Shown here one piece after another: positions 5,868 to 24,524 of a DNA stretch of 64,000 bases (position 1 is its first letter; every line of letters begins with the position of its first letter). The stretch spans positions 215,597 through 279,596 of the forward strand of contig JAPLSN010000042.1 of NCBI GenBank assembly GCA_026398615.1, in the 5' to 3' direction. This DNA comes from Spirochaetota bacterium (lineage in GTDB: Bacteria; Spirochaetota; Spirochaetia; Treponematales; UBA12059). A program made the position numbers and the translations under genes. A model generated the notes under the pieces. The model was not told where the DNA came from, made no database searches, and saw only the letters and a list, made by a program, of their open reading frames with translations.

Positions 5868-7379
5868 CTACTCCTTGGGGCTGGCGATGCCGAGTTCCTT
5901 GATGAGTCGGGACAGGTAGGTCCTCTGGATGTCGAGGATCCGCGAGGTCTCCGTCTGGTTCCAGTCGTGCTCCTCGAGCGCGGACCGGATGAAGTGCTTC
6001 TTGAAGAGGATTAGCGCGTCTTTCAGATTCTTGCCATGATACATGTTGCGGTCTTCGGGACGTTCGCCGATGGAAAGGTCGGTCGCCGAGATATACAAAT
6101 CCTTGGCCACCACCACCGCGCGCTCGATCGCGTTCTCAAGCTCGCGGATGTTGCCGGGCCATGAATACGAGAGCATGAGGCCCATGGCTTCGTCGGCAAA
6201 GCCCAGCGCCTGCTTTTTCGTCTCCCTGCACGCCCGCTTGAGGAAATGCTCCGCGAGCGGCGCGATGTCCTCCTTGCGCTTTCGCAGGGGCGGGACGTAG
6301 ATGGGCAGGACGTTGAGGCGGTAGAAGAGATCATTCCGGAATTCGCCGCGCTCCACCAATGTTTCGATATCACGGTTCGTGGCCGCGATGATCCTGACGT
6401 CCACGGTGACCGGATCGCTCGAGCCGACGCGCTCGAAGGTTCGCTGCTGGAGGACGCGAAGCAGCTTGGCTTGGAGCTTGAGCGGCATGTCGCCGATCTC
6501 GTCGAGGAATATCGTGCCGCCGTCGGCCATCTCGAACCGGCCCTTGCGGTTCTGGATGGCATCGGTGAATGCGCCCTTGACGTGTCCGAAAAGTTCGCTC
6601 TCGAGCAAGCCTTCGGGAAGCGCCGCGCAGTTGACCCTGACGAAAGCTCCCTTCTGACGGGGGGAACGTTTGTGTATCTGCTCGGCGATGAGTTCCTTGC
6701 CGACGCCGCTTTCGCCGAGGATGAGGACCGACGAATCCGTCCTGGCCACCTTGTCGACGATCTCGAGTTTCTCCCTCATGGCCGGGCTCACGGAAATCAG
6801 GGTGTGGTAGCCCTGCCCGGTTTGAATCTGGTCCCGGAGGTATCCGATCTCCTCGCGCGCCTTTTCGAAATACTGGGCGTTCTCGATTGCTATCGCCGCC
6901 TGGACGGCGAAGACTTCCAGCCACCGGAGGTCTTCCTGCGTAAAATACTTCTTGTCTTTCTTGTTGATGATCTCGATGACCCCCACGCACTTGTCGCGGA
7001 TGATCATGGGAACCGCGATGATGCTGTACGTGGGGAAACCGATCGACTTGGAAATATCACCGTAGAACCTGGAATCGGTTTCGACGTCGTTGACGATGAG
7101 CGAGCGACCATGTTCGGCCACCCACCCGGCAATCCCTTCGCCCTGGTTGAGGGTGAATTTCTTGACGTCGCGGCCTTTCGGGCCGAGAGCTATCTCGAAA
7201 TACAGTTTATTGTCTTCCGCGTTCTTGAGGGCGAGCGATGAGGCCTCCCCCTCGATGAGTCGCGTTGCCGACTCGATGATCCGGGTCAACAATGACGTGG
7301 CGTCACCGTAGTTGGAGTTTATGAGCGTGCTGACTTCGAGAAGGGTCTCGAACTTGCGGGGATCGACGCGCTCGAACAT
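5868..7379 (-). CDS. Sigma-54-dependent transcriptional activator (GAF sensor, AAA+ domain, Fis-type HTH)
   Basis: Walker A GESGVGKE, ESELFGHVKGAFTDA (GAFTGA-loop variant), the RIIAATNRD/FRNDLFYRL block, and a C-terminal HTH (ETSRILDIQRTYLSRLIKELGI). Confidence 0.9.
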   Translation of the reverse strand: MFERVDPRKFETLLEVSTLINSNYGDATSLLTRIIESATRLIEGEASSLALKNAEDNKLYFEIALGPKGRDVKKFTLNQGEGIAGWVAEHGRSLIVNDVETDSRFYGDISKSIGFPTYSIIAVPMIIRDKCVGVIEIINKKDKKYFTQEDLRWLEVFAVQAAIAIENAQYFEKAREEIGYLRDQIQTGQGYHTLISVSPAMREKLEIVDKVARTDSSVLILGESGVGKELIAEQIHKRSPRQKGAFVRVNCAALPEGLLESELFGHVKGAFTDAIQNRKGRFEMADGGTIFLDEIGDMPLKLQAKLLRVLQQRTFERVGSSDPVTVDVRIIAATNRDIETLVERGEFRNDLFYRLNVLPIYVPPLRKRKEDIAPLAEHFLKRACRETKKQALGFADEAMGLMLSYSWPGNIRELENAIERAVVVAKDLYISATDLSIGERPEDRNMYHGKNLKDALILFKKHFIRSALEEHDWNQTETSRILDIQRTYLSRLIKELGIASPKE

Positions 7380-19059: not shown

Positions 19060-20544
19060 TCACTCCATCGTCTTCATGTAACGGGAGAACGAGAACGCGG
19101 CATCGACGAAAAAGCCCGCGCTTGTGGCCGTGGCGGCCCAGAATACCGTCTGGCTGGTCCAATACCCGAACTCCAGTCTTTTCCTCGCAGATTCGGATTC
19201 CGCCAGGCTCAGGCGGCCGGCAGCGATGTCGTTGAGGATGGCTTGCTCGGCGTTGGAATAAAGCTGGAAATATCCATAGGAAAGGACGGCCACCGGCAGG
19301 GAAATGACGAAACGGCCGAGCGAGTCAAAGAAGGAATCCCGGGAATACTTGAAGCCAAAGGCCTTCCTGTCGACTTCCTTCAGCAGGGTGACGTCGATGG
19401 TTTCGATTTTCCCCGCATCGAGTTCGAAGAAACGCGGCGCATACCCGTTCAAGCGCGCTTCGCCTATCCCGCGCACATCGTCGGCGATCACGTCGACGGG
19501 ACTCAGGCCGGCGAATGACGAGGAAACGTACACCCTGGCATCGGCGGGATTGGTGCGGACGAGGAATGTCGGTGGGTTTATCGGGGACAGTTCGACGACA
19601 ATCTCCGTCGTCGATCCCGGATAGGCACGTACTTCGCTTTCGCCGGACTCGTAGCCGAAAGCCTGGGTCGACAACCGGTATTCGCCGCCGCGATAACAAT
19701 AGAAGGTCCCATCCGCGATGTTGACGACAGGATTGGCTCCTTCAAGCCTCATCGTGGCATGATCCGGGATAGGTTTGACCCTCAGGATGGCGAGGTTGGC
19801 TCCCGCAACCGCTCTTTCTATGGTTTCGCGCGCAAGAACGACCGCGTCGCCGGGATCGTCGGGAAAGGCGAAATTTTCGAATGAAACGATCCGGGCCGAC
19901 GTCAGGGATGACCACACATCGAAACCCACAAGCGCGTAGCCCCCGACCGGGCGGACCGTCCCCGTGATGAGGATGTCGAGCCGGTTGTCACTCATGGATT
20001 TCAGGATATCCGACGATTCCGGGACGAAACGCCCTTCCTGGTGCCCCTTCCACATGGCCAGCCGTACGTAGCGTTCGGGTCGTTTTTCCGTGTTTCCCCC
20101 CGTGTCGCGGATGGACGCCCTTACGAGCTTGTCCAAAGCGGCACGTTTGGCTCTCAAGTCGGTTTCGGCGAGGACGCGATCGGCTGCCTGCCTGTCCGCT
20201 CCGGCCCGGCTAAACGGCACGGTGTCCAGTTTCCTGCGGGCAGCCGCGAGTGCGCTGCCCGCCGCATACAATGCCCGAAGCCGGGTTCGCTCGTCGACGG
20301 ATGCCGTTTCTTCGGGCGACATGCGCCTGAACGGAAGGGAGCTTATCCTGCGAAGGAGCAGACTGGGGATGGCAATGGCGAATGAACGAAGCTGCTCGTT
20401 TCCCCCGTCGACCTTCAATTCTGCGATTCCGACGACGAGCGCTGCCTGTTCCGAGATCGCGATGGAAGGTTCCGCGGCGGGTGAACGCGCAGCAACGACA
20501 AAAAAGGCGAACGCCGCCAGCGATCGGAGGATCCGATCAAACAT
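19060..20544 (-). CDS. Exported protein with PEGA-like domains and C-terminal TM helices
   Basis: Signal-like N-terminus plus PEGA-like stretches (FLVRTNPADARVYVSSSFAGLSPVDV...NGYAPRFFELD). It shares a [KR]-Y...[DS][RS]FF motif with 41067..42209 and 43345..44607. Confidence 0.5.
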   Translation of the reverse strand: MFDRILRSLAAFAFFVVAARSPAAEPSIAISEQAALVVGIAELKVDGGNEQLRSFAIAIPSLLLRRISSLPFRRMSPEETASVDERTRLRALYAAGSALAAARRKLDTVPFSRAGADRQAADRVLAETDLRAKRAALDKLVRASIRDTGGNTEKRPERYVRLAMWKGHQEGRFVPESSDILKSMSDNRLDILITGTVRPVGGYALVGFDVWSSLTSARIVSFENFAFPDDPGDAVVLARETIERAVAGANLAILRVKPIPDHATMRLEGANPVVNIADGTFYCYRGGEYRLSTQAFGYESGESEVRAYPGSTTEIVVELSPINPPTFLVRTNPADARVYVSSSFAGLSPVDVIADDVRGIGEARLNGYAPRFFELDAGKIETIDVTLLKEVDRKAFGFKYSRDSFFDSLGRFVISLPVAVLSYGYFQLYSNAEQAILNDIAAGRLSLAESESARKRLEFGYWTSQTVFWAATATSAGFFVDAAFSFSRYMKTME

Positions 20545-21674
20545 CGTCGTCGTTCGCTCCGTCTTCGACGACCGTTCCGCCCTTCCAGCGGAAGTGCATC
20601 CAATTTTCGATGAACGGGTCGATGTCCCCGTCCATGACGCCCTGGACGTTTCCGACGAAGAACTTCGTCCGGTGATCCTTGACCATCGTGTACGGCTGGA
20701 AGACGTACGACCTGATCTGGCTGCCCCATGCGATTTCCTTCTTTTCCGAGGCGAAGCGCGCGTTTTCCTTTTCTTTCTCCAGCCGGTAGTATTCGTACAA
20801 TCTCGATTTGAGGACGCTCATCGCAACGTCCTTGTTCTTGTACTGGCTGCGTTCGTTCTGGCAGGTTACGACGATTCCCGTCGCAAGGTGGGTAATGCGG
20901 ACGGCACTGTCCGTCTTGTTCACCTTCTGGCCACCGGCGCCCCCGGAACGGTAGGTGTCGATACGGATCTCGTCCGGTTTGATTTCGAGATCGATGGAAT
21001 CGTCGAGGACGGGCAGGATGTAAACGCTGGCGAAGGATGTATGCCGTCGGGCATTGGCGTCGAACGGGCTGATCCGCACGAGCCGGTGCACCCCCGATTC
21101 GCCACGCAGGTAGCCATAGGCATACGCACCGTCGATTTCTATGGTTGCACTCTTTATTCCGCCTTCGGCTTCGAGGATGTCCACAATTTCATACTTGAAA
21201 CCCCTCCGTTCCGCCCATCTGGTATACATCCTGAGAAGCATTGAAGCCCAGTCGCAGGCTTCCGTTCCGCCGGAACCGGCATGGATGGAAAGGAATACGC
21301 CGTTGCGATCAGCTTCGCCCGAGAGGAGCTCAAGCACCATCGCCTTGTCGAAACGGTTTTGGAGCTTGTCGTAGGTAGTGCTGATGTCAGTATCGAGGGA
21401 TGTATCGTTTTCCTCCCGGGCCATATGGAACACGTCGAAGAGCGCTTCGACATCCTCGCGGAGTTGTTGCCATGAATCCAGGCGGTTACGCATGAGCTTG
21501 GCTTCGCCGATGATGCGTTCGGCTTTTGTCTGGTCGTTCCAGAATCCCGGTTCCGCGGTTTGCGTGTCCCGGTCATCTATGGCTTTTTTCAGGGAATCAG
21601 GGTCAAAGACGCCCCCAGATATCCATGATATTCCGCTTCAATTCCTCGATGGGTGCGGAAATGTCTTCGTACAT
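20537..21674 (-). CDS. prfB: Peptide chain release factor 2, made by a programmed +1 frameshift (ORF0 21674..21603, ORF1 21604..20537)
   Basis: ORF0 reads MYEDISAPIEELKRNIMDIWGRL and ends at CTT TGA C. The +1 frame continues DPDSLKKAIDD...; SPF and GGQ (RSGGAGGQKVNKTDSAVR) motifs are present, and GGAGG precedes the ATG. Confidence 0.95.
21602..21608 (-). other. prfB +1 frameshift site CTT TGA C with an upstream internal SD-like GGGGG
   Basis: The minus strand reads tgg ggg cgt CTT TGA C cct. Confidence 0.95.
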
Positions 21675-21708
21675 GTGTTCCTCCGTGGGAATCGGCTCCA
21701 GGCCTGTC

Positions 21709-21990
21709 TCAGGTCTTATGGGGCCGGACGATCACTTTTCGCCATTTGTTCTCCTTAAGGATGGAGATGGCGAGGGTTCCCTCGACGGGGAACTGGTACA
21801 TCCGAATGGTATCGTAGTAATCGGTTATCTTGTCGATATCCCGTTTCACGGCGGATAGCTGTTTTTCCGAAACCTGGGCAGATTCGAAGCATGCCCGCTG
21901 AGCTTTTTCAAAGCCGTATTGCGGGAGGAGATCGTAGAGAGCGGCCCTGGAATCCTCGCTCCCCATGTCGCAGACGATTGAAACGAACAT
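21709..21990 (-). CDS. Small Cas2/VapD-like ferredoxin-fold protein (orphan)
   Basis: This 93-aa protein shows a Cas2-like pattern: MFVSIVCDM (beta1 with Asp), SRAALYDLLPQYGF (alpha1), QRACFES (compare YSVFE), and DTIRMYQFP (compare LRIYxL). No cas1 or repeat array is nearby. It ends 35 nt upstream of prfB. Confidence 0.45.
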   Translation of the reverse strand: MFVSIVCDMGSEDSRAALYDLLPQYGFEKAQRACFESAQVSEKQLSAVKRDIDKITDYYDTIRMYQFPVEGTLAISILKENKWRKVIVRPHKT

Positions 21991-21998
21991 TTACATCA

Positions 21999-22028
21999 AA
22001 TCTATCCGAAATCCGCCGGAAGTGTCAA
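21999..22028 (-). promoter_or_regulatory. Putative sigma-70 promoter TTGACA-18-TAGATT, with the ATG 8 nt after the -10 (leaderless candidate)
   Basis: Minus strand: cgtTTGACActtccggcggatttcggaTAGATTtgatgtaaATG. There is no SD. Confidence 0.4.
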
Positions 22029-22042
22029 ACGAGCAGGAAGCA

Positions 22043-22113
22043 GGATTGGCAGCGCAGCCGCATCCGGCCATTGGCGCAGCCGATGGCCTAGGTGAGCGGC
22101 ACAGCCGCTCACC
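22043..22113. repeat. Array of three consecutive 23-nt palindromic hairpin units with a shared GGC-N3-GCC core
   Basis: GGATTGGCAGCGCAGCCGCATCC | GGCCATTGGCGCAGCCGATGGCC | ta | GGTGAGCGGCACAGCCGCTCACC. Unit 3 is a perfect 10-bp stem with a 3-nt loop, unit 2 is 10 bp with one G-U pair, and unit 1 is weaker. Confidence 0.85.
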
Positions 22114-22120
22114 GGGCCTC

Positions 22121-22149
22121 TGGAACTCCCGCGAATCGTCCGATATTAT
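22121..22149 (+). promoter_or_regulatory. Putative promoter TGGAAC-17-TATTAT, with the ATG 8 nt after the -10 (leaderless candidate)
   Basis: TGGAACtcccgcgaatcgtccgaTATTATagagcaagATG. There is no SD. Confidence 0.35.
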
Positions 22150-22157
22150 AGAGCAAG

Positions 22158-23426
22158 ATGAAACGACTACAATGCATTACGTTCGCGCTGCTCTGCGCGG
22201 CCGCTGCGATCACCGCAGCCCAGTCCCCGGAACCCGTCGACACGGACGATACGGGCTCTACCGAGAGCATTTTCGCGCCCTTCCCTTCCCGGATCAGGGT
22301 GGTCACGAGGGGCTTGACAGTCATCGTTGCCTGGGAGGATAGCGCCGATATCGAAGGCGACTATGCCATTTACCGCTACGGACAAGCCATCGATGCATCC
22401 AATTTCGGGAATGCTTTGTTCCTGGGTTCCGTTCCGATCGGTAGCATGAGCTTCGAGGATAATCCTCCCGATCCCAAGGCATATTATTACCTTGTCCTCG
22501 GAAGGGACGCGAAAGGACTCGTCTACGAGGTTTTCGTTCCCCTGAAGAACGCGACAATGATGCCAATCTCCGTCGCGGTGCCCGAAAAACCCAAAGGCGT
22601 GATCGAATCCATTTCGGCGACCCGCAGGAATGATGCCATCGTCCTTTTATACGTCGTTTCCAAACCTGGCGACAATTACGTGCTCTACCGTCACATTGAA
22701 CCGATCCTGTCGGTTCCCAAGCTCCTGGAATCCACCATTGTCGCGCTTTTCGAGGACACCGCGGGCAGCTTCGTGGATTACCCCGTGCCGGGTATTTCCT
22801 ATTTTTACGCGTTGGTGGAGGAAAAAGCGCTGACCAGCGGCGAGATCAAGCTGGAGGCCGGGGTGAATGCCACCACGACGGCGGTGGTGATACCGACGGG
22901 CTTGTACAGAACGGGACTCCCCGCGGTATCGGCGGTATCGCGGAACATTCCCCTGCCCTATCTTTCACTCAACAGGAGCGTCGGGACGGACGGGGGCACC
23001 ATCGCCGACGGTATCGATCTGCCTGAACCAAGGCAGCTCACGATAGAGACCGAAAAAGCCCTCAGGCGCTATCTGGCCGGCATACCTTCCCTGTCCATGG
23101 AGATACCGCGGCTCAGGGTGTTCCAGGAAGACCTCAAGCCAGCCGCGGGAGCGGAAGATTATACCCTGGGCATCATCGCGCGGGACAAGCTGCAGCGAGG
23201 CGTCTACGTTGAGGCAGCCGATCACCTGATCCGCTACCTGTCGATCCAGCGTACGCCCAATGCCGCTGCGAGGGCGCATTTCTACCGTGGGGAAGCCCTC
23301 GCCTTTTCCGGAAGTTTGCGGGACGCGTTCTTCGAGTTCCTCCTGGCAGAGGACCGCTACTATGTCGAGTCCAACGAGTGGATCAACTACATCCTCGAAA
23401 AGCTGAACGCGAATCCACTTTCCTGA
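22158..23426 (+). CDS. Secreted hypothetical protein with two Fn3-like repeats and a C-terminal TPR-like region
   Basis: Signal peptide MKRLQCITFALLCAAAAITAAQ. An internal duplication pattern is visible (..VAWED...YAIYRY...YYYLV / ..LLYVV...YVLYRH...YFYALV). Confidence 0.5.
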   Translation: MKRLQCITFALLCAAAAITAAQSPEPVDTDDTGSTESIFAPFPSRIRVVTRGLTVIVAWEDSADIEGDYAIYRYGQAIDASNFGNALFLGSVPIGSMSFEDNPPDPKAYYYLVLGRDAKGLVYEVFVPLKNATMMPISVAVPEKPKGVIESISATRRNDAIVLLYVVSKPGDNYVLYRHIEPILSVPKLLESTIVALFEDTAGSFVDYPVPGISYFYALVEEKALTSGEIKLEAGVNATTTAVVIPTGLYRTGLPAVSAVSRNIPLPYLSLNRSVGTDGGTIADGIDLPEPRQLTIETEKALRRYLAGIPSLSMEIPRLRVFQEDLKPAAGAEDYTLGIIARDKLQRGVYVEAADHLIRYLSIQRTPNAAARAHFYRGEALAFSGSLRDAFFEFLLAEDRYYVESNEWINYILEKLNANPLS

Positions 23427-23474: not shown

Positions 23475-24524
23475 TCAGAATGAAAACCGGCAAACTGTCT
23501 CGTGTACGTACTTGGCGCCGGGTTCCAGGATGCACGCGGGGAAACCCGCTTGATTGGGCGAGTCCGGAAGGAACTCGGTTTCCAGGCAGAAACCCGAATG
23601 CCTGTCGTAGACTGATCCCGTCTTCCCCCTGATGTCCTTCAGGAAATTCCCCGAATAAAACTGCACGCCGGGCATGGTGGTGAGAATGGTCAATCGCCGA
23701 TTCGTCCCGGGATGAAACGCTTCGGCGCAGGGGATCAGCGAATTGTCCGATATTTCGGGACGATCAAGGACAAAGCAGTGGTCATAACCGCCGACCGCGG
23801 CGATGTCCGTCCCGACCGGCTTCGCCTTCAGGAAATCGAAGGGAGTGCCTGCGACAGGATGCAACGCCCCGGTCGGTATGAGGTCGTCGCCCACGGGGAC
23901 ATAGCGGGAACAGGAAATCCGCAGTTCGTGATCGAGGATATCGCCCTTTCCCTCGCCTTTCAGGTTGAAGTAGGAATGATTGGTCAGGTTGACCGGAGTA
24001 GGCGCGTCCGTCACCGCCTCGTACGCCATCCGGATCGAACCGTCGGCGCCGAGGCTGTAGGTGACGGAAGCTTCGAGATTCCCGGGATAGCCCTCGTCCC
24101 CATCAGGACTGTTCAGGGAAAAGCGCACCGAGGGGTCCCCGCCGACGCTGCCGGGTTCGGAGTTCCACACGTACTTGTCGAATCCCTTGCGGCCGCCGTG
24201 CAGGTGGTTTGCGCCGTTGTTTGTAGCCAGGACGTATGACGTCGATCCGAGCCTGAACGCGCCTTTCGCGATGCGGTTGGCGTAGCGCCCGACCGTCGCG
24301 CCGAAGAAGGGGTGCTTGGCAGCGTAGCCCGACAGGGTGGAAAAACCCAGGACGACGTCGTCATGGCCGCCCTTTCCGGCGGGGAGCAGGACCGAGACCA
24401 GGATGGCCCCGAAATCGGTCAACGAGATCGACATGTTCCCGTTCTTCAGCACGAAGAGCCTGGTTTCCTCGCCCGTGGCGAGCGTACCGAACGGGAGTAC
24501 CCTGGTATCCATGTGATCCTCCAT
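23475..24524 (-). CDS. galM: Aldose 1-epimerase (galactose mutarotase)
   Basis: GRYANRIAKGAF, NNGANHLHGG and the HSGFCLETEFLPDSPN motifs. Confidence 0.85.
   Translation of the reverse strand: MEDHMDTRVLPFGTLATGEETRLFVLKNGNMSISLTDFGAILVSVLLPAGKGGHDDVVLGFSTLSGYAAKHPFFGATVGRYANRIAKGAFRLGSTSYVLATNNGANHLHGGRKGFDKYVWNSEPGSVGGDPSVRFSLNSPDGDEGYPGNLEASVTYSLGADGSIRMAYEAVTDAPTPVNLTNHSYFNLKGEGKGDILDHELRISCSRYVPVGDDLIPTGALHPVAGTPFDFLKAKPVGTDIAAVGGYDHCFVLDRPEISDNSLIPCAEAFHPGTNRRLTILTTMPGVQFYSGNFLKDIRGKTGSVYDRHSGFCLETEFLPDSPNQAGFPACILEPGAKYVHETVCRFSF

Follow-up and report, generated by a model that had tools for sequence, protein, structure and literature searches.

A run of short, adjacent palindromes lies between two divergently transcribed genes of a Spirochaetota bacterium (contig JAPLSN010000042.1). 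The locus raises the question of what kind of element these palindromes form: a set of operators, a copy of a dispersed repeat family, a structured RNA, or a local product of the DNA itself. The stretch analyzed, referred to here as the window, is 64 kb in length, and all coordinates are window positions. The feature is real and ordinary in kind, and it is found in one species, without sign of conserved function.

The palindromes and their genomic setting

The array is located in a 167-nt intergenic region (21991-22157), with the gene to the left on the - strand and the gene to the right on the + strand. The left-hand gene (21709-21990, - strand) encodes a solo Cas2-like protein of 93 residues, which scores 31.5 bits against the Pfam Cas2 model (cut-off 23.8) and 25.3 bits against TIGR01573 (cut-off 24.5), in both cases just above the curated cut-off. 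Thirty-four bases past this gene begins prfB (20537-21674, - strand), encoding release factor 2, with RF-1 and PCRF domains and a +1 frameshift site (CTT TGA C) at 21602-21608. The right-hand gene (22158-23426, + strand) encodes a protein of 422 residues with a signal-peptide-like sequence at its N terminus and no Pfam family.

The first-pass annotation placed the array between the -35 boxes of the two divergent promoters, and this placement is borne out. The promoter of the Cas2-like/prfB operon (21999-22028, - strand) is of the sigma-70 type, with TTGACA (22028-22023) separated by 18 nt from TAGATT (22004-21999), and the ATG at 21990 follows 8 nt past the -10 box. Among 80 orthologous loci, 70 carry a TTGAC(A/G)-type box 34-36 nt upstream of the Cas2-like ATG, and a -10 box of the TAnnAT type comes after it. 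On the other side, the promoter of the 422-residue protein gene (22118-22149, + strand) consists of CTCTGGAA (22118-22125), a 14-nt spacer and CCGATATTAT (22140-22149), and the ATG at 22158 is 8 nt downstream of the -10 box. In an alignment of just under 40 loci, the motif (T/G)CCGATAwTAT is located about 8 nt before this ATG, with CCGATA being invariant, and the upstream box, usually CTnTGG (CTnTGGaa), is at a fixed distance from it. Both promoter blocks are thus conserved in orthologous loci. Judged from the sequence, the -10 box and the 8+11+8 geometry of this second promoter appear to resemble those of a sigma-28/FliA promoter. A sigma-54 promoter with enhancer-binding sites was considered for the same gene and rejected by eye, as its boxes do not have the GG-N10-GC spacing. 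Apart from these, the promoter scan gave nothing in the region, and no promoter on the + strand upstream of the array. Both conserved promoters fire outward, and the palindromes are therefore upstream of both -35 elements.

The array contains three units. U3 (22091-22113) is a perfect 23-nt palindrome, GGTGAGCGGC ACA GCCGCTCACC, in which all positions of the 10-bp stem are paired. U2 (22066-22088) is a 23-nt palindrome of the same layout, GGCCATTGGC GCA GCCGATGGCC, with nine Watson-Crick pairs out of ten and one T:G pair (read on the + strand). The arms are thus 10 bp and the centers, or loops, 3 nt in both. U1 (22043-22065; GGATTGGCAGCGCAGCCGCATCC) is a decayed unit, in which GGAT+TGGC faces GCCG+c+ATCC across a 6-nt center; its core is GGC-AGCGCA-GCC, and its pairing amounts to only 4+4 bp with a bulge. 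The units had been described as contiguous except for a 2-nt spacer before the third, and indeed U1 and U2 abut (0 nt) while U2 and U3 are separated by TA, with no other linkers. The sequence of the array is the same in three independent assemblies, which excludes an assembly artefact.

Folding of the units as single-stranded DNA sets U1 apart from the other two. U3 has a folding energy of -12.3 kcal/mol, with similar z scores on both strands (about -6.7 to -6.8). The values for U2 are -9.0 kcal/mol (z -3.85) on the + strand and -6.7 kcal/mol (z -1.95) on the - strand. U1 is not significant as a hairpin when compared to shuffled sequences (z 0.12 and -0.81), and it scores below 8.7 bits, and is not detected, with a covariance model (R1) built from U2 and U3 only. 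Of the three 23-nt hairpin units originally described, U2 and U3 are therefore real palindromes, but the hairpin of U1 is no better than those of its shuffles. Likewise, the GGC-N3-GCC core assigned to all three units is present in U2 and U3, whereas U1 has GGC-N6-GCC.

The two palindromes did not arise by chance. When the window was shuffled 300 times with its dinucleotides preserved, one shuffle contained a pair of such 23-mers within 30 nt. Among 5000 shuffles of the 167-nt intergenic region, the probability of at least one palindrome was 0.005 and that of at least two was 0, with no shuffle (0/5000) containing two.

Relatedness, copy number and conservation of the units

Sequence comparison shows the three units to be relatives. 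U1 and U2 have GCGCAGCCG in common at a spacing of 22 nt (P 0.004), U1 and U3 have 11 of 13 bases in common (P 0.02), and U2 and U3 in register agree at 15 of their 23 positions (P 0.008, with a null model that preserves the palindrome). This mutual relatedness of all three units is the signature of local tandem duplication. The symmetric positions common to U2 and U3 are GG..A..GGC / GCC..T..CC. The positions at which they differ (3, 4, 6 and 7, together with their partners) remain complementary inside each unit.

The outer stems had been noted to vary in a compensatory-looking manner. The differences between U2 and U3 are indeed self-complementary, but the pattern is limited to that one comparison, because U1 lacks the N3 core and is not a significant hairpin. 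As the differing positions of U2 and U3 still pair, what is being maintained or regenerated is intrastrand pairing rather than a protein half-site. Pairing within the strand predicts that differing positions should be self-complementary, while a half-site common to the two units does not.

The first-pass annotation also proposed a genome-wide search for further 23-mers of this kind. The DNA searched was the window and 6.9 kb beyond its left end, about 71 kb in all. Mismatch searches with the full units and their consensus, a regular expression for the unit pattern, and the R1 covariance model with filters off found no further unit in this DNA, so that the array is unique within about 71 kb. 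There are 37 GGC-N3-GCC sites in the window, of which only U3 extends to a long perfect palindrome, U2 being broken by its T:G pair. The best other match to R1, at 19.2 bits, falls in coding sequence according to a rough map of the open reading frames. The same model, also with filters off, gave nothing comparable in close relatives.

Searches of wider collections gave a similar picture. The U3 stem has 72 matches in metagenomes, from unrelated organisms and contexts (within genes, or embedded in longer palindromes), and none of the 72 has an ACA/TGT loop or a U2-like neighbor. The U3 stem is therefore a generic GC hairpin rather than a family. BLAST searches against plasmids and phages returned chance-level matches or none.

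No Rfam family was found at its gathering threshold, and a known RNA family is rejected as an identity for the array, the matches being limited to a sub-threshold one to naRNA4 and meaningless ones to miRNAs. The naRNA4 model (RF02564), which describes the RNA derived from E. coli REP325, is alone among Rfam models in aligning over its whole length. It scores 20.7 bits, whereas its gathering score is 59.5, and the E value of 0.07 for the 171 nt searched would lose significance in a search of the whole window. The alignment includes a 12-nt identity, GCCGCATCCGGC, between U1 and the model consensus. This match is one of REP/BIME-like architecture and not of membership.

Several other classes of element were examined and rejected. 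The array had been held not to be a terminator, and in agreement with this no terminator-like site is present in 21600-22400 and the flanking genes diverge. Nor is it a CRISPR, as had also been stated. Its short, partly palindromic repeats next to a Cas2-family gene are reminiscent of a CRISPR array beside cas2. In contrast to such an array, the three units are non-identical and contiguous (0 and 2 nt apart) without spacers, 77 of 80 loci have the solo Cas2-like gene fixed ahead of prfB, and Tandem Repeats Finder reports no CRISPR array in the window. Operators of the CRP, LacI, CIRCE and NtrC types were compared by eye, and none fits.

The orthologous intergenic regions, whose comparison the first-pass annotation had suggested, do not conserve the units. 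None is present in 80 genome loci from other species or in six further loci (L156-L161). The spacer between the two promoters is about 5-9 nt in three of these loci (L073, L056 and L054) and 20-40 nt in most, as compared to 88 nt in the window. The spacer is 49 nt in L004, which among the species of the genome collection is the closest, its Cas2-like protein being 94% identical to that of the window. The flanking promoter blocks, including that of the 422-residue protein gene, align well between L004 and the window, though the spacers themselves give no convincing alignment. The spacer is thus free to vary in length and sequence between two conserved promoters.

Conservation of structure without conservation of sequence is rejected as well. 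The orthologous spacers are generally unstructured. Most of their z scores fall within -1.6 to +1.6, with L019 (z -3.8) and L040 (z -2.4) standing out, and the small palindromes of L004 and L047 reach only marginal significance (P 0.05 and 0.06, respectively). With the units missing from all the orthologous loci compared and the spacers generally unstructured, the array is a lineage-specific expansion rather than a conserved regulatory element. The site between the promoters is a hotspot for insertion and turnover.

Two of the other spacers show what else can occupy this position. In L156, whose Cas2-like protein is 84% identical to that of the window, the same promoter spacer (within 300-590) is filled by about 240 nt of AT-rich DNA of unrelated sequence. 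In L019, the 64-nt spacer upstream of the Cas2-like gene (about 2915-2985) contains a long hairpin, the one with the z score of -3.8, which is unrelated to the units of the window.

Origin of the array and alternative explanations

We tentatively favor, at a little short of even confidence, the explanation that the array is a young, species-specific cluster of palindromes at the DNA level, with REP/BIME-like architecture, made locally in a variable spacer. A unit of roughly 23 bp with the core GGC-(G/A)CA-GCCG would have been duplicated locally in tandem, to give two intact units and one that has since decayed. Mutations that perfect a palindrome are known to arise by template switching where the palindrome is imperfect (PMC7202029), and such switching would then have copied one arm from the other, producing compensatory-looking changes without selection. 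As at quasipalindromic hotspots of template switching (PMC7202029), the arms differ between units and yet pair within each. Such hotspots represent a mutational process, however, and not a class of element, and the tandem layout of the array also needs the duplication step. This proposed origin by duplication and template switching is drawn from only three units. Weak selection for cruciform-prone (hairpin) DNA could be an alternative route to the same pattern. Two clean adjacent stems would decay under neutral drift, and the array should therefore be either very recent or under some selection.

The array, if it acts at all, would act as DNA rather than RNA. No promoter reads into it, so that an element at the DNA level is the better reading, and the array is probably silent. 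The likely consequence of its presence would be architectural, as the two promoters would be about 80 bp further apart than in compact orthologues. Cruciform-prone DNA of REP/BIME-like character would also be placed where divergent transcription is expected to build negative supercoiling. Any effect would probably be one of promoter spacing or of cruciform formation. A role for cruciforms or for supercoiling is speculative, and GC-rich arms of 10 bp extrude slowly. Also to be weighed against this explanation is that a spacer of about 5-30 nt suffices in most orthologues.

An alternative reading is that the palindromes are tandem operators or upstream activator sites, at which a lineage-specific dimeric transcription factor would bind the 23-bp dyads and control one or both promoters. 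This we consider unlikely, even though several features of the array fit it. U2 and U3 are dyad-symmetric and share symmetric positions (P 0.008), and the units are placed exactly between the two -35 boxes. Their centers are 23 and 25 bp apart, roughly two helical turns, upstream of both -35 elements, as is seen for palindromic operators between divergent promoters. The centers are located roughly at -54, -79 and -102 from the start region of the 422-residue protein gene and at -62, -85 and -110 from that of the Cas2-like gene, which are typical distances for activator sites.

The operator proposal is weakened by the total lack of conservation of these dyads. There is no trace of the units in any orthologous spacer, and several of these spacers, at about 5-9 nt, have no room for them. 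The half-sites of U1 are separated by N6 rather than N3, and U1 fails the model of U2 and U3. The positions outside the shared consensus are also palindromic, which recognition by a protein does not require. Moreover, there is no second site in the roughly 71 kb searched, and hence no repeat at other promoters there. No cognate regulator was identified, and none is encoded immediately beside the gene pair, the neighbors being release factor 2, an aldose epimerase and cytidylate kinase.

The array could instead belong to a REP-type family dispersed through the genome by a RAYT-type transposase (PF01797), either as one copy or as a small BIME-like cluster. Of the three explanations offered in the first-pass annotation, a REP-like cluster agrees best with the architecture, the differing positions of U2 and U3 being still self-complementary. 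Like enterobacterial REP/BIME elements such as REP325, the array consists of extragenic, GC-rich, imperfect palindromes of 20-35 nt lying side by side. U2 and U3 are extragenic palindromes with 10-bp stems, of a length within the 20-40 nt or so of the stem-loop units of REP/BIME elements, and U1 fits this description weakly. The array is a lineage-specific insertion in a variable spacer, the naRNA4 model aligns with it over its full length (20.7 bits, with the 12-nt identity in U1), and other Treponema genomes (L063 and L082) carry recurrent hairpin families.

On the other hand, the multi-copy property expected of a REP-like cluster is not found. The window and the adjoining 6.9 kb contain no dispersed copies, the match to naRNA4 falls far short of the gathering score, and the 72 metagenome matches to the U3 stem are in unrelated contexts, none with a U2-like neighbor. 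The units are contiguous without linkers, and no GTAG-type 5' tetranucleotide flanks any of them. The location between divergent promoters is also atypical. In E. coli, about 99% of REPs are found between tandem or convergent genes, where they act in 3' UTRs, and about 1% between divergent genes (PMC4550694). Taken together, these observations make a copy of a dispersed family quite unlikely. A family dispersed at low copy number may nevertheless be compatible with the roughly 71 kb searched.

A further reading gives the palindromes a function of their own, as a lineage-specific cis module. They might form cruciforms that serve as an insulator or sensor, coupling or uncoupling the Cas2-like/prfB operon and the gene with the sigma-28-type promoter via transcription-generated supercoiling. 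Alternatively, they might be the first sighted REP/BIME-like copy in free-living Treponemataceae. Either version is decidedly doubtful, and we regard it as a long shot.

The possibility that the spacer is transcribed and forms a structured RNA, with three hairpins in a 5' leader or a small RNA, had been raised as well. The + strand of a 96-nt region folds slightly better (-53.3 kcal/mol, z -3.9) than the - strand (-50.7 kcal/mol, z -3.2). On the + strand both imperfections of the stems read T:G and would become G-U wobbles in an RNA, but neutral transitions would give two of two with a probability of 25%. A weak TTGTAG-16-TATAAT on the - strand, seen by eye inside the start of the 422-residue protein gene, could read through the array, but this TATAAT is not conserved as such, the invariant CCGATA being on the other strand. 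A structured RNA is highly improbable, and the proposal finds no support, as there is no Rfam family at the gathering score, both conserved promoters point away from the array with none predicted upstream of it on the + strand, no terminator is present, and the 80 loci and L156-L161 contain no homologues of the array for covariation.

The array itself matters little, being another short extragenic palindrome cluster in a single uncultured species. It is of modest value as a clean natural case in which the spacer of a conserved bidirectional promoter can expand from some 5 nt to 90-240 nt, and it illustrates that compensatory-looking tandem hairpins need not imply a structured RNA or an operator.

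Conserved neighbors and other hairpin arrays

The setting of the array is probably more interesting than the hairpins, in that a solo Cas2-like gene is fixed upstream of prfB and the divergent gene has a sigma-28-like promoter. In 77 of the 80 Treponemataceae/Spirochaetales genome loci, the Cas2-like gene immediately precedes prfB on the same strand. It has 114 close homologues, all from spirochaetes wherever the source names them, and in 24 homologues Asp8 and a further 24 residues do not vary. The 64-kb window contains no other cas gene and no CRISPR array. The protein appears to be a domesticated Cas2, its gene forming a fixed operon with that of release factor 2.

The gene for the 422-residue protein has a homologue in the same divergent position in 56 of the 80 loci. 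A promoter of the sigma-28/FliA type would link this uncharacterized protein to the motility regulon.

[quoted passage not shown] It is about 8 nt for both divergent genes, with no Shine-Dalgarno sequence (21988-22028 on the - strand, 22140-22160 on the + strand), and for the Cas2-like gene this geometry is found family-wide. The arrangement suggests that the mRNAs of both genes may be leaderless or nearly so, and that of the Cas2-like gene is probably nearly leaderless.

Two other genes in the window deserve mention. An aldose 1-epimerase gene (23475-24524, - strand) is located between cmk and the gene for the 422-residue protein. It is missing from that position in the closest relative (L157), which indicates a local gene insertion beside the locus. 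Elsewhere, a gene for a GAF-domain sigma-54 activator (5868-7379, - strand) indicates that the host uses sigma-54 enhancer-binding proteins.

Arrays of adjacent hairpins are also present in Treponema vincentii and another Treponema species (L063, 3345-3403; L082, 1457-1699). One recurrent hairpin in these arrays is CCGATGTAC-nTCCnT-GTACATCGG, and in L063 it is found just downstream of the Cas2-like gene. These hairpins may represent a REP-like family in host-associated treponemes.
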